Source: an uncultured Candidatus Saccharibacteria bacterium
GTDB taxonomy: Bacteria > Patescibacteriota > Doudnabacteria > UBA920
NCBI GenBank assembly: GCA_964512925.1
Contig: CAZEKH010000002.1
Coordinates: 122,505 to 186,504 of the forward strand
DNA length: 64,000 nucleotides
Direction: 5' to 3'
Shown: positions 17,236-20,868 of the stretch, in pieces
Layout: every line of letters begins with the position of its first letter
How positions within the stretch are numbered: the stretch's first letter is position 1
Position numbers and translations under genes: made by a program
The notes under the pieces: generated by a model
What the model was told of the DNA's origin: nothing
What the model saw: only the letters and a program-made list of their open reading frames with translations
Database searches by the model: none

Positions 17236-20200
17236 TTCGGTTGATTAGTATTGCTCGGCTGAACACATTACTGTGCTTACACCTGCAACCTATATGACCA
17301 GTATAAAGTATTCAGTATATTGTATTATGCATTGCTGCATAATACTTTATACCTTATACAAAATACTAGTATTGATACGGGGTAGTCTTCCCCGAACCTT
17401 TCGTCACGATCTTGCGATCGGACAACGAAACCTAGTCTTGCGGACGGCTTCGCGCTTATATGCCTTCAGCGCTTATCCTAACTAAACCTAGCTACCCCGC
17501 GATGCTCCTGACGGAACAACGGGTACACCAGAGGTTTATGCATCTCGGTCCTCTCGTACTAGAGATGCGCCCACTCAAGTTTCGTACACCCACAGCAGAT
17601 AAGGACCAAACTGTCTCACGACGTTTTGAACCCAGCTCGCGTACCGCTTTAATTGGCGAACAGCCAAACCCTTGGGAGCTTGTTCACCCCCAGGATGCGA
17701 TGAGCCGACATCGAGGTGCCAAACCCTCTCGTCGCTGTGGACGCTTGGAGAGGATCAGCCTGTTATCCCTAGAGTAACTTTTATCCGTTGGGCTTTGCGT
17801 CTTCCACTCGAACGCATCGGATCACTAACTTCGACTTTCGTCCCTGCGCGGGTCGCCGCCCTTGCAGTCAAGCATGCTTATGCGTTTGCGCTATCGGCAT
17901 GATTTCCATCCATGCCTAGCATACCTTAATAAACGCCTCCGTTACCATTTAGGAGGCAACCGCCCCAGTTAAACTACCCACGAGCCACTGTCCCAATGTA
18001 GGTTAAGCATTGGTTAGCAATTTCATCGCTGCAGGGTGGTATTTCACCTGTTGACTCCATACCAGCTGGCGCCAGTACTTCAAAGTCTCCCACCTAGGCT
18101 AAACAACAAAAATAAAATTGCAATGACACGCTATAGTAAAGCTTCATAGGGTCTTTCCGTCTTGCTGCGGGTAAGACGGCATCTTCACCGCCACTGTAAG
18201 TTCATCGGCATGTTCGTTAAGACAGTCCTCTACTCGTTATGCCATTCGTGCGGGTCGCAACTTACGCGACAAGGAATTTCGCTACCATAGGACAGTTATA
18301 GTTACTGCCGGCGTTCATCAGGGCTTGGCCGAGAGGCTTGCGCCGCCCGGTTTAACCTTCTGACACTGGCCAGGCATCAGCCCGTATACATCAGCTTGCG
18401 CTTTAGCACGGACCTAAGTTTTTGGTAAACAGTCGGGAGAGGTCTTTTGCTGCGGCCCTTTTAATATGCTGGATAATGGGGACCATCTAAAAGATGATCC
18501 AAAGGAGGGAGTCAGACTGATACTGGGATATCTGACATTTTAACCCCTTTTACTCCCAGATTTCGGGAACCCTCTTTTTTAATCTGCCAATTTCGGTGGT
18601 ATAACCTACCTACTCTACCCTTGTTATCGGGTTATCATGCCCAATCTGTTGAACATGACGTCAGATTTTGGCGGACAAACTGGGACGATAACTCCCCAGA
18701 CGCACGAGTTTTCAGCTCGTTGCTCACTTTGAGCTTTTTGTCCATAACTTTTCCATTACCCAGCATATAAAAGGGCAAGGTATATACCGAAGGTACACCT
18801 GCTTTTTTGCCGAGTTCCTTAACGAACATTGAGCCGGACGCCTTGGGATTCTCTCCCCATCCACCTGTGTCGGTTTACGGTACGGTCACCTTTAAACATG
18901 ACTTCGACGCTTTTCTTGAGACCTTGGTTTGCGCTAATTCCCGTTGCCAGGTTTTCCCATATATTCAGGCTTACTGCTAGACCTGACTCATCTCTTGCGA
19001 GGTAGAATTAAGCCTGCTGAAGGCTTTCCGGATTTGCCTGGAAAGCCGCCCTACGCGTACAGAAACGCCAATAGTCAAATAACGCTAACGCTACCAAAAT
19101 CTGTCCCGCCTAAGATAATTTAAAGGTGGTTATGGAATATCAACCATATTTTCCATCGGGTCCAGCCCTTGGGCAGAACTCTTAGGACCGACTAACCCAG
19201 GGACGACAATCGTTGCCCTGGAAACCTTGGATATTCGGCGAAGAGGATTCTCACCTCTATATGATATTACTTATTCCAACATTCTTACTTGTATGCGGTC
19301 CACGGCGCCTTACGGCTACCGCTTCAGCCTGCATACAACACTCCTCTACCAATCACAAAAAATAAATTTAATGTAATTCCACATCTTCGGCACCAAGCTT
19401 AGCCCCTATAAATTGTCGGCGCAGGATCGCTTGACCAGTGAGCTGTTACGCTTTCTTTAAAGGATGGCTGCTTCTAAGCCAACCTCCTGGTTGTATGAGC
19501 AACCCCACATCCTTTGCACTATAGCTTGGATTTGGGGGCCTTAGACGGTGGTCTGGGCTCTTTCCCTTTTGTCTGGTGGAGCTTAGCCCCCACAGACTGA
19601 CTCCTGAGTTGTTACCTTTAGAATTCGGAGTTTGGTTCGAGCCTACCGCTTGCGCAGCAGGTTTCGATTCAGTGCTCTACCTCTAAAGGGAAGACTCAAG
19701 GCTAGCCCTAAAGCTATTTCGAGGAGAACCAGCTATCACCCGGTTCGATTGGAATTTCTCCCCTACGCACAGCTCATCCCCTATTTTTGCAGCAATAGTG
19801 GGTCCGGACCTCCCTCTGTTTTTACACAGAGTTCATCCTGGCCATGCGTAGCTCACTCGGGTTTCGGGTCTAACTCACGCGACATATAAGATAAGTATTA
19901 AGTATTTAGTATCTTGTATTAAGGGTTGCTCAATACTTAATACTGTCTACTTAATACTATTCTTATTACGGACTATTAATCCTCGCTTTCACTACGATTT
20001 CGTTTTTGATAAAACTTAATCAAGCCGCGTAAAATTAACTCGTTGGATCATTCTTCAATAGGCACGCCATTAGCCACTCCGATCCCTTGCGGCATCGGAG
20101 TAAGGCCTTTGACACCTTGTAAGTATACGGTTTCAGAAACTATTTCATTCCCCTTCCGGGGTGCTTTTCACCTTTCCCTCACGGTACTTGTTCACTATCG

Positions 20201-20868
20201 GTCAATATGAGTATTTAGCCTTAGATCTTAGTCGACCTGATTTCCAACCAGATTTCTCGTGTCTGGTTGTACTCAAGAAAAAGTTAGGAAATTGCATGGT
20301 TTTTCGCTATACGGGACTATCACCCTCTGTGGTCCGCCGTTCCAGGCGTGTTCTGCTAAACAGCACACTATATTCCCAGTGAGGTTACAGCCTCACAATA
20401 ACTTCCACTTATAACGCCATCTAAGCAACGACTGTAATCTTTAAATCTCTGTCTTGCGACTTTGAAAACACTTAGATGGTTTGGGCTAATAGAATGAGTA
20501 TAAAGTATTATGTATTAAGTATTTAGCCGAAGCTTTATACAAAATACTCTCTACTTTATACAAATTCTATATCTTTCCGCGTTCGCTCGCCACTACTAAC
20601 GGAATCTCTTCCCGACTTAACGTCGGGATTGATTTATTTTCCACATGCTACTGAGATGTTTCACTTCGCATGGTTCCCGCTCTTTATACCCCACGGCATA
20701 AAGGCATACATTCTTCAAATGTATGGGTTTCCCCATTCGGACATCCCCGGATCAAAGCTTTTTGCCAGCTCCCCGAGGCTTTTCGTTAGGCTGAAACGTC
20801 CTTCATCGGCTCATATTACCTAGGCATCCACCGTATACCCTTTTGTGTTTTAATCAGTTGATTGACTA
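17236..20868 (-). rRNA. rrl: 23S ribosomal RNA, about 3.6 kb, with AT-rich insertions
   Basis: Minus-strand matches to the 23S 5' end (GGTGGATGCC..GATGAAGGACG), the GCGAGCGAAC region, the sarcin-ricin loop (AGTACGAGAGGACC), domain V, and the 3' end (GTGTAAGCACAGTAATG...ACTAATCAACCG). Confidence 0.9.

Follow-up and report, generated by a model that had tools for sequence, protein, structure and literature searches.

Extra helices at H14 (H15), H16 (H16a), and H31 (H31a) are known from the 23S rRNA of mycobacteria, where they lie on the solvent side of the ribosome and are retained (PMC3286452), and intervening sequences (IVSs) of 83 and 99 nt are known from Salmonella (PMC2672173). Pairing repeats of 7 nt have been described in the P6b stem of the Nostoc tRNA-Leu(UAA) group I intron, which consists of complementary tandem units that are gained and lost and whose repeat classes have been replaced between lineages (PMC4476775). 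Among CPR bacteria an over-long 23S is the rule: 77–82% of CPR 23S genes have inserts of at least 100 bp (PMC9297842; PMC11270868). Work on CPR rRNA has so far concentrated on introns and homing endonucleases that reach 100 bp or more in length; the gene described here is intron-free.

Three junction hairpins in an over-long 23S gene

We analyzed a 64 kb stretch of DNA (64,000 nt, hereafter the window) from an uncultured, ultra-small CPR bacterium (Patescibacteria) of the Parcubacteria type; the proteins nearest to the LigA encoded beside the rRNA genes come from Parcubacteria, Nomurabacteria, and Doudnabacteria MAGs. Sequencing runs SRR14271336 and SRR14271332 contain this organism. The 23S gene is 3632 nt long, compared with 2904 nt in E. 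coli, as a first-pass annotation made from the sequence had recognized in calling it over-long; that annotation had set the gene at 17236-20868, about 12 nt off, and had not given its strand. An Rfam scan of the 64 kb window found no 16S gene. The rRNA features are as follows.

17224-20855, minus strand: 23S rRNA gene, full-length match to Rfam RF02541 (model 1-2925, 2333.5 bits, above the gathering score)
16917-17033, minus strand: 5S rRNA gene, downstream of the 23S, found by Rfam
17196-17221, minus strand: 3' arm of the 23S processing stem, pairing with 20862-20887 (inverted repeat I7)
20862-20887, minus strand: 5' arm of the 23S processing stem (inverted repeat I7)

Inverted repeat I7, 26 nt long and 88% complementary, flanks the 23S on both sides. 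Within the gene, the annotation had reported three A/U-rich hairpins at 17299-17400, 19868-19990, and 20490-20580, close to where we delimit them by their conserved flanks.

17294-17377, minus strand: hairpin A, 84 nt, GC 0.25, four to five heptads per arm, GCAA tetraloop
19886-19968, minus strand: hairpin B, 83 nt, GC 0.23, four heptads per arm
20488-20575, minus strand: hairpin C, 88 nt, GC 0.23, four heptads per arm, UUCG tetraloop

All three hairpins are shown to occupy single-stranded junction linkers. Hairpin A sits at E. coli 2834/2835, in the linker that separates H101 from an intact H100 (17378-17394, loop AAGACUA); it had been assigned to the helix-98 region, which is incorrect, H98 being a separate helix at 17401-17426. 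Hairpin B occupies the H31a position of mycobacteria, at E. coli 652/653, in the linker that leads from an intact H31 (19970-19982) to the 3' strand of H27. Hairpin C, at E. coli 262/265, occupies the H15 position; it follows H14, likewise intact, and on its other side lies the strand AGCC, which belongs to the next long-range helix. The covariance-model alignment proposed in the first-pass annotation gave a full-length match and misplaced the inserts: cmscan assigned A to the loop of H100, B to that of H31, and C to a downstream hairpin, which is contradicted by reading the sequence against E. coli and relatives, and we rejected this placement because H100 and H31 are intact. Infernal assigned two of the three hairpins to the wrong loop.

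The predicted folds have energies of -30.8 kcal/mol for A (z -6.1 relative to shuffled sequence), -30.9 kcal/mol for B (z -7.9), and -28.0 kcal/mol for C (z -6.3), all far more stable than shuffled sequence (z -6 to -8) and in agreement with the long A/U-rich hairpins first described, and the UUCG cap noted on one of them is that of C. Their arms, each about 35 nt long with 74-76% complementarity, pair as helical blocks of 8-11 bp with regular 2x2 or 3x3 internal loops between them, so that the longest unbroken helix in A, B, or C is 8-11 bp, compared with 26 nt in the 23S processing stem and 23-33 bp in the basal stem of H63.

Together A, B, and C make up 255 of the approximately 728 extra nucleotides. 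The expectation that other insertions supply the remainder was borne out at H63, next to C, and at H58, H25, H13, and H98, the last longer by 10 nt than in E. coli and the segment adjoining hairpin C by about 100 nt.

18455-18776, minus strand: enlarged helix 63, 322 nt compared with about 45 nt in E. coli (about +280)
20417-20479, minus strand: GCAA-capped hairpin, 63 nt, just 3' of C, conserved in relatives and corresponding to a short Rfam consensus hairpin
18964-19024, minus strand: extended hairpin in the H58 region, +42 nt relative to E. coli
20074-20105, minus strand: H25 extension, +20 nt, GCAA loop
20610-20628, minus strand: H13 tip extension, +18 nt

The largest of these, in H63 (which we take, by standard nomenclature, to be the site of eukaryotic ES27L), appears in the Rfam alignment as a 304-nt insertion in the loop of model helix 1751-1778 and has a near-perfect basal stem of 23-33 bp (inverted repeat I9) with a branched interior, folding at -132 kcal/mol (z -6.3). 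It is unique to this genome, being absent from relatives L013, L014, L284, L285, L290, and L291, and it had no blastn match elsewhere among the loci compared. As a carrier of an intron or IVS protein it was set aside, with no Rfam family at E<=5, no Pfam match, and no similar sequence. It is the best candidate in this 23S for an IVS of the RNase III type.

Heptad repeats and the helices of relatives

Each arm of A, B, and C consists of four degenerate 7-nt units, nnGUAUn on one side pairing with nAUACnn on the other. The pattern GTAT-N3 repeated four times has four matches in the 64 kb window, all within the hairpins (0.00 expected from shuffles), and repeated three times it has eight (0.01 expected); outside the three rRNA hairpins, the GTAT-heptad motif occurs nowhere else in the window. 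Arrays of period 7 number 16, compared with 0.3 in shuffles, and those of other periods 1-5, compared with 0.4-1.0. The motifs that the first-pass annotation had found to be shared are real and correspond to direct-repeat families D2 and D3, present in all three hairpins with 72-89% identity over 25-27 nt.

Relatives whose 23S is 83-93% identical already have helices at sites A, B, and C, mostly of 50-62 nt, and the proposal of fresh insertions into otherwise normal sequence accordingly fails. At site A, orthologs in four relatives measure 84 nt (L284), 59 nt (L285), 62 nt (L288), and 59 nt (L290); at site B, three relatives (L014, L285, and L290) have helices of 50-60 nt that differ in sequence from B; and at site C, five relatives have helices of 59-62 nt (L014, L285, and L290), 109 nt (L012), and 122 nt (L002), with a common base, AUAGAA/UUCUAU, and unrelated distal sequence. 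The same pattern of conserved bases, unrelated distal parts, and variable length holds for the orthologs at all three sites, which are empty in E. coli and in L013, a more distant relative. The close relative L287 has no helix at site A, and helix A is therefore dispensable. With helices of unrelated and mostly shorter sequence already standing there in relatives, the sites are ancestral and the heptad sequence alone is new.

Some features of the site-A helices point to structural constraint. All five, hairpin A included, have a GCAA cap, as do four of the five short extra stems of this 23S gene, and those of L288 and L290 have an 18-nt apical module in common. The L284 helix, from an independent JGI contig (Ga0376277_0001065), is itself built of heptads, with UACUGnn units, and has the same length as hairpin A (84 nt); relative to non-heptad orthologs, the helices described here are 25-35 nt longer. 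An RNAalifold consensus of the five site-A helices gave spurious pairing and no useful covariation, and single-sequence folds were used instead. What sets this gene apart is its heptad-repeat sequence, together with the additional ~25-35 nt by which each helix exceeds those of most relatives.

Heptad hairpins also occur beyond this gene. A unit-agnostic scan of 337 kb of CPR loci found 11 of them, compared with none in shuffles and none with periods of 6, 8, or 9: four are rRNA expansion helices, three are peripheral stems of group I introns, and four lie in intergenic spacers, and their arms again comprise 4-5 heptads. The introns with heptad stems, in three relatives, are located at E. coli 23S position 2500/2501. 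A metagenome scan for the GTAT-heptad pattern gave at least 120 matches; among the matches listed, 28-40 form hairpins whose arms hold 4-5 heptads, with a center of 8-73 nt and an arm orientation of 30:0, and the taxonomically assignable contigs among them are from CPR in five of seven cases and from Bacteroidota in two. In viral contigs used as controls, composition-matched heptads had 14, 35, and 46 matches, compared with 49 for GTAT, and one of 144 heptad contigs, the GTAT set included, contained a hairpin. The abundance of GTAT heptads was dropped as a sign of a special family, plain A/T-rich heptad arrays being common in general; only the hairpin arrangement and the fixed orientation of the arms stand out.

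Origin and fate of the hairpins

We lean toward the view that the hairpins are lineage-specific expansion helices of a Parcubacteria-type CPR 23S at ancestral sites, with growth of heptads in place and retention. Units of 7 nt would be gained on both arms by slippage-type duplication, with selection for pairing, and some exchange among sites A, B, and C may have occurred; the same growth would act clade-wide, in spacer hairpins as well as in the peripheral stems of structured RNAs, as the period-7 arrays and the heptad hairpins of the 337 kb of CPR loci suggest. The presence of the GUAU unit at all three sites is not easily explained by independent slippage, given that the unit varies by locus elsewhere in the clade.

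The common unit raises the question of common descent. Rather unlikely in our estimation, A, B, and C could be true paralogs, copies of one mobile or copied palindromic element (MITE- or RPE-like, with heptad terminal inverted arms) that inserted into three permissive rRNA helices or reached them by gene conversion. The three pairs they form outscore every other helix pair compared (62/81, 61/81, and 59/76 identical, or 75-78%), including that of A with its L284 ortholog (54/83, or 65%), and an irregular 14-mer, AAGUAGA(C/G)AGUAUU, occupies the same arm position in B and C. When the order of heptads was permuted, however, the observed identity was reached in 24 of 576 permutations for A-B and in 172 and 484 of 576 for the other two pairs. 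The heptad order common to A and B fits a copied element, and the order-specific similarity of B-C and A-C is not significant. Because permuted orders often reach the observed identity, the likeness reflects mostly the shared repeat unit; of the common origin first proposed, the resemblance stands and shared descent is at most a possibility. Whole-hairpin paralogy was set aside on this test, in which A-B is borderline and neither B-C nor A-C shows a signal. One hairpin from an unrelated metagenome contig (L036) reaches 80% identity to B over 71 nt, on par with A and C, and high identity therefore follows from the unit alone. The metagenome hairpins, with a variable center and constant arm orientation among the matches listed, and the near absence of hairpins among composition-matched viral heptads would suit a copied element, but simple heptad arrays are about as common whatever their A/T-rich unit, no further copy lies within the 64 kb window, neither target-site duplications nor sharp borders were seen, and the basal pairs are homologous to those of relatives' helices. 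At site A, the L284 ortholog, already built of heptads of another unit, points to evolution in place. It is highly improbable that the hairpins are an assembly artefact, a repeat-induced chimera in the 23S gene. Two independently assembled same-species Logan contigs (L282 and L283) match the window at 100% identity; they start 16 nt 3' of hairpin A and so leave it uncovered, and the sequences of B and C rest on one assembly; yet contig breaks at palindromic repeats are normal, the 23S follows the Rfam model colinearly over its full length, each hairpin falls exactly at a helix site of relatives with homologous base pairs, and L284, assembled independently, has at site A a heptad hairpin of its own, 84 nt long.

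None of the hairpins is an intron, and they have no homing endonuclease or maturase ORF; the first-pass annotation had likewise listed no intron ORF or homing endonuclease. At the gathering threshold, Rfam found only LSU, 5S, and tRNAs in the whole window and no RF00028 or RF00029 intron; in 18350-19060 (H58-H63), the sole region scanned at E<=5, no intron family appeared, and the same tool recovered RF00028 in the positive controls L290 (63.9 bits) and L285 (39.6 bits). Open reading frames of at least 40 aa that overlap the inserts have no Pfam match at E<=0.1 except a chance-level one to TMEM164. As expansion helices, the hairpins would be structural filler that the ribosome tolerates, as opposed to introns or homing elements, and we slightly favor their being kept in the mature 23S over their being cut out; they may form solvent-exposed stem-loops with no catalytic role, as H15 and H31a do in mycobacteria. 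A different fate, suggested by the first-pass annotation and possible although we doubt it, would make all three IVSs whose stems RNase III cuts during maturation, leaving the ends unjoined and the mature 23S in fragments. A/U-rich hairpins of 83-88 nt match the Salmonella IVSs in size, the close relative without helix A fits such sporadic elements, and RNase III is encoded in CPR genomes, for example by a Curtissbacteria protein adjoining the hairpin of L135. The same gene, moreover, has a much better IVS candidate in H63. In the CPR surveys, most rRNA insertions are reported as absent from transcripts, which speaks against retention, and short ORF-less ones are proposed to be RNase III IVSs (PMC9297842; PMC11270868). 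Against cleavage, the sites differ from the classical IVS helices H9, H25, and H45 and are junction linkers at which mycobacteria keep extra helices in the mature ribosome (PMC3286452). The stems, interrupted every 7 nt with perfect blocks of at most 8-11 bp, would be weaker RNase III substrates, and the GCAA cap kept at site A in five genomes and the apical module kept in two are not expected of a discarded spacer. A signature-motif scan of the 64 kb window found no rnc, a result that is uninformative for the whole genome.

Beyond growth in place, a dedicated process might, as a tentative proposal, build hairpins with arms of 4-5 heptads in CPR/Patescibacteria and apparently in some Bacteroidota, the three rRNA helices having been rewritten in concert with GUAU. 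It could work by copy-and-paste of a heptad-armed palindromic module or by templated or recombinational homogenization, and its targets could include rRNA helices at the periphery, stems of group I introns, spacers between genes, and even loops in coding sequence.

Comparison with known systems

The hairpins are a curious variant of known CPR rRNA insertions and no new type of element. The insertion sequences described in CPR rRNA (Brown 2015; Tsurumaki 2022, 2024) come from the same group of organisms, and short ORF-less inserts that are not introns are noted in those papers and left uncharacterized. The surveys count inserts of at least 100 bp, a threshold below which hairpins A and B fall, and focus on group I and II introns and LAGLIDADG proteins, whereas this 23S is without any intron; the portions of their text covered here do not mention a heptad structure. 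The IVSs of Salmonella, Campylobacter, and Coxiella (helices 9, 25, and 45) are likewise ORF-less, 80-110 nt long, and sporadic, with a functional 23S, but they differ in position, and the hairpins described here have periodically interrupted stems and belong to sites with helices throughout the clade.

Rickettsia palindromic elements, Correia elements, and REP/MITEs are short hairpin repeats found in several contexts, also inside genes. In contrast to these, the window holds no dispersed near-identical copies and no target-site duplication, and the consensus extends only over the 7-nt unit.

The closest counterparts in position are the mycobacterial helices H15, H16a, H31a, and H54a, which like those described here are extra stem-loops conserved in a clade, with C and B at the H14 and H31 positions; site A (H100/H101) has no mycobacterial counterpart reported in PMC3286452. 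The hairpins of this gene come from an organism of a different phylum, are longer and A/U-rich, and consist of 7-nt repeats, and their retention is putative, whereas retention has been shown in mycobacteria. They share with rRNA expansion segments a place at variable surface sites, in the case of C and B, and a clade-wide helix with a conserved base and variable length and sequence. They represent a second route to rRNA enlargement, by clade-specific expansion helices at junction sites that would grow by 7-nt repeats, and their period-7 architecture provides a countable signature for asking how peripheral RNA helices lengthen. In practical terms, heptad hairpins break short-read assemblies and shift 23S alignments.

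The closest counterpart in architecture is Nostoc P6b. Cyanobacterial P6b and STRR heptamers have units such as TDNGATT and NNTGAGT and, in P6b, an intron as host, and no evolutionary link is implied. Heptads that pair across both arms, which define the P6b type, are found in A, B, and C and again in the intron of relatives at 23S position 2500, making these helices a bacterial parallel both to Nostoc P6b and to the growth of eukaryotic expansion segments.

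The 23S rRNA gene and its extra length

The query (the genome of the window) has a 23S rRNA gene that matches the Rfam bacterial LSU model over its full length (model 1-2925, 2333 bits) and measures 3632 nt against 2904 nt in E. coli, with a GC content of 0.46 over the whole gene. The first-pass annotation had called this gene over-long, and it is; the locus was also placed correctly, with ends about 12 nt off and the strand unstated. In CPR, the ultra-small bacteria of the Patescibacteria type, insertions of at least 100 bp are found in 77-82% of 23S genes, and about half of these insertions are group I introns, many of them with LAGLIDADG endonucleases (PMC9297842, PMC11270868); an over-long CPR 23S is therefore expected. 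Unusually, the present gene contains no intron of any sort; its length comes from helices, of which three A/U-rich stem-loops (hairpins A, B, and C) account for 255 of the approximately 728 extra nucleotides.

Features of the 23S locus and additions relative to E. coli
17224-20855, minus strand: 23S rRNA gene
16917-17033: 5S gene (Rfam)
17196-17221 and 20862-20887: 26-nt inverted repeat on both sides of the 23S gene, the usual processing stem
17294-17377, minus strand: hairpin A, 84 nt, GC 0.25
19886-19968, minus strand: hairpin B, 83 nt, GC 0.23
20488-20575, minus strand: hairpin C, 88 nt, GC 0.23
18455-18776, minus strand: helix 63 (H63), 322 nt against about 45 nt in E. coli, an enlargement of about 280 nt
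Beside hairpin C: conserved 63-nt hairpin and further sequence, about +100 nt
H58 region: +42 nt
H25: +20 nt
H13 tip: +18 nt
H98: +10 nt

Other insertions had been supposed to make up the remaining length, and the additions at H63, beside C, and at H58, H25, H13, and H98 bear this out. The H63 insert is predicted to fold at -132 kcal/mol (z -6.3), with a near-perfect basal stem of 23-33 bp and a branched interior. Neither Rfam at E<=5 (for the insert) nor Pfam (for its ORFs) gave a match, none of the relatives examined carries the insert, and nothing similar occurs among the loci compared. The insert is this gene's best candidate for an intervening sequence (IVS) of the RNase III type.

An Rfam search found no 16S gene within the 64-kb window, and the 23S-5S unit (16917-20887 and flanks) stands apart from any 16S gene. 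Upstream of the 23S gene is LigA; downstream are a DOT1-like methyltransferase, TrmB, and GlmS, with a strong terminator hairpin after the 5S gene (~16875-16905); the order LigA-23S-5S-methyltransferase-TrmB-GlmS is kept in relatives, including contigs L285 and L290. The nearest sequences to the window LigA come from MAGs of the Parcubacteria group, Nomurabacteria, and Doudnabacteria, at 50-65% identity and up to 70% in further comparison.

Three heptad-built hairpins and their sites

With borders set by flanks conserved in relatives, each of the three sequences is predicted to fold as a single long hairpin: A at -30.8 kcal/mol (z -6.1) with a GCAA cap, B at -30.9 kcal/mol (z -7.9), and C at -28.0 kcal/mol (z -6.3) with a UUCG cap. 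Beyond mere A/U-richness, every arm consists of four tandem degenerate 7-nt units (heptads), nnGUAUn in the 5' arm (in hairpin B, UAGUAUU-AAGUAGA-CAGUAUU-AAGUAUU) and nAUACnn in the 3' arm, and the stems therefore alternate between blocks of 8-11 bp and regularly placed internal loops (2x2 or 3x3). Four tandem GTAT-N3 units occur four times in 64 kb, always within the hairpins, where shuffles give an expectation of 0.00, and the motifs quoted in the first-pass annotation occur nowhere else in the window. The three hairpins noticed there are thus real, non-random, and built of heptads. They contain no intron core and no ORF with a Pfam match, in line with its statement that intron ORFs and homing endonucleases are lacking.

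Hairpin A lies in the H100/H101 linker (E. coli 2834/2835), not in the helix-98 region to which it had been assigned, hairpin B in the linker after H31 (652/653), and hairpin C between H14 and the next AGCC strand (262/265). Infernal puts the extra bases within loops of adjacent hairpins, a placement ruled out by reading against E. coli and relatives: H31 (GGAUUAAUAGUCC) and H100 (CGGGG-AAGACUA-CCCCG) are intact. Mycobacterial ribosomes have extra helices at H14 (H15) and H31 (H31a), which can be seen on the solvent face of the mature 50S (PMC3286452); C and B thus sit at expansion sites already known in bacteria.

Anchoring on LigA and on the DOT1-like methyltransferase that follows the 5S gene, we retrieved whole or partial 23S genes of relatives; their conserved parts are 83-93% identical to the query.

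Helices at the matching sites in contigs of relatives
Site A: L284 (84 nt), L285, L288, and L290 (59-62 nt); none in L287 (3-nt linker) or E. coli
Site B: L014, L285, and L290 (50-60 nt); none in L013 or E. coli
Site C: L014, L285, and L290 (59-62 nt), L012 (109 nt), and L002 (122 nt); none in L013 or E. coli

This occupancy indicates that the three sites, all at helix junctions, are ancestral for the clade. Helices at site C have the same base as the query, AUAGAA/UUCUAU, with unrelated distal sequence above it, site-B helices have a related base and a different distal part, and all five site-A helices, that of the query included, end in a GCAA cap, with the apical module GAAGUAGCAAUAYGGAU common to L288 and L290. 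The query helices are 25-35 nt longer than those of most relatives and made of heptads. The site-C helix of L012 (~8560-8670) has units of 8-9 and 17 nt (ACTTGATAAACTTTATA x2), not heptads. Two Logan contigs from independent short-read assemblies of the same species, L282 (SRR14271336) and L283 (SRR14271332), are 100% identical to the window and both start 16 nt 3' of hairpin A, an indication that this hairpin interrupts assembly.

Period-7 hairpins in related genomes and metagenomes

Counting as an array any 3-nt core present in four or more copies at a fixed period, we found 16 period-7 arrays in the window (0.3 in local shuffles), compared with 1-5 at periods 5, 6, and 8-11 (0.4-1.0 in shuffles). 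Hairpin arms make up six of the 16; others lie inside the enolase, CofD, alcohol dehydrogenase, and LigA genes. Four window arrays reported by TRF are exactly 31 nt long (at 2868, 10402, 21905, and 50826). That in the enolase gene (ORF 2428-3720, plus strand) is a nearly perfect (AATCTTC)x4.4 at 2868-2898 encoding IFNLQSSILN, the linker joining the N- and C-terminal domains, in a protein whose length, compared by eye with E. coli enolase, appears unchanged. The CofD gene (minus strand) holds an array at 10402-10432, AAGATTT on the coding strand, and the CofD gene of L287 a similar one (8307-8339), so a period-7 array appears to have persisted within coding sequence.

A unit-agnostic scan for a period-7 array and, no more than 120 nt away, an array of the reverse-complement core gave 11 heptad hairpins in 337 kb of CPR loci, with none in shuffles or at periods 6, 8, and 9. 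Expansion helices of rRNA account for four of them (A, B, and C of the query, and site A of L284, where the units are UACUGnn). Another three lengthen peripheral stems in a group I intron, itself without an ORF, at E. coli 2500/2501, and the last four are intergenic, among them hairpins in the SHMT-CofD spacer that L287 and L288 have as orthologs.

Group I intron at 23S 2500/2501
L284, 1505-2025: with heptad hairpin
L287, 72-535: with heptad hairpin
L288, 703-1232: with heptad hairpin
L285, 6889-7256: short, heptad-free copy (RF00028, 39.6 bits, E 8e-9)

Intergenic heptad hairpins
L287, 7767-7853
L288, 10226-10299 and 4717-4826
L013, 425-522

The query 23S lacks a group I intron at 2500/2501, and the window SHMT-CofD spacer (10887-10958) has no stable hairpin. 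The unit varies by locus (GTAT, CAGTA, GTAG, AAGATTT, TTAGTGA), being GTAG/CTAC in the SHMT-CofD spacer of the two relatives and different among the intron stems of L284, L287, and L288, and arms again comprise 4-5 heptads. Related genomes thus repeatedly have period-7 hairpins, both in structured RNAs and in spacers. Two further 23S insertions of relatives, both missing from the query, are an insert of about 1 kb in L014 (11424-12441, E. coli ~1924) and a group I intron in L290 (8519-8776, RF00028, 63.9 bits, E. coli 2604/2605).

In metagenome contigs, AGTATWAAGTATTNNGTATNNNGTAT has at least 120 matches. Among the matches listed, none lies within an rRNA gene, 28 to 40 (depending on the criterion) have an inverted ATAC-heptad array downstream, arm orientation is constant (30:0), arms have 4-5 heptads around a centre of 8-73 nt of unrelated sequence, and about one-fifth are inside long open frames, for example of GatB, an IleRS-like gene, and glycosyltransferases. 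A conserved coding segment separates the two arms in L054/L105 (IleRS-like gene) and L132 (glycosyltransferase); a perfect (AAGTATT)n array has TAA in three frames on both strands. Exact proteins beside ten GTAT hairpins named seven contigs: Yanofskybacteria (two), Staskawiczbacteria, Gottesmanbacteria, Curtissbacteria, Bacteroides, and a Bacteroidota MAG. Among the matches listed, (AAGTATT)n...(AATACTT)n hairpins in L017-L136 thus span CPR of several candidate phyla and Bacteroides/Bacteroidota. Abundance of plain GTAT arrays is not itself special, since in viral contigs the pattern has 49 matches and three composition-matched heptads 14, 35, and 46; the hairpin arrangement occurs in only one of 144 viral contigs (GTAT set included).

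Origin and fate of the hairpins

The first-pass annotation read the three segments as sharing a common origin and as possibly excised by RNase III, an interpretation that holds in part. Among all pairs of site helices in all genomes, the three top alignment scores are the pairs within the query (62/81 identical for A-B, 61/81 for B-C, and 59/76 for A-C), and A matches its own ortholog in L284 at only 54/83. When heptad order was permuted within arms, the observed in-register identity was reached in 24/576 permutations for A-B, 172/576 for B-C, and 484/576 for A-C, and an unrelated hairpin on metagenome contig L036 matches B at 80% identity over 71 nt, so much of the similarity follows from the shared unit. 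One irregular 14-mer stands at matching arm positions in B and C. A common repeat unit at the three sites is evident; copying from one another is possible. The helices may well have grown where they stand, both arms acquiring 7-nt units while selection favoured pairing, and exchange between the three sites could have occurred.

In-place growth and a copied module are both candidate origins, a matter separate from fate. We lean toward the helices remaining in the mature 23S as surface stem-loops, given the match of C and B to the mycobacterial H15/H31a sites, the conserved helices with, at site A, their conserved GCAA cap, and stems interrupted every 7 nt. Excision by RNase III seems less likely; in its favour are an IVS-like hairpin size, the lack of helix A in L287, and the position taken in the literature that inserts in CPR rRNA are removed. 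Short ORF-less non-intron CPR inserts have been noted, uncharacterised, and suggested to be RNase III IVSs (PMC9297842, PMC11270868).

Insertions in CPR rRNA and bacterial expansion helices are both known kinds, and the heptad architecture has been described for a cyanobacterial intron stem; interest would be greater if the clade-wide heptad-hairpin process were an active, dedicated mechanism. For hairpins C and B, mycobacterial H15 and H31a are counterparts at the same sites. The nearest described parallel to the clade's heptad hairpins is the P6b stem-loop of the Nostoc tRNA-Leu group I intron: its two arms are made of 7-nt repeats complementary to each other, repeat number varies, and lineages differ by replacement of entire repeat classes (PMC4476775), much as the relatives' intron stems differ in their heptad units.
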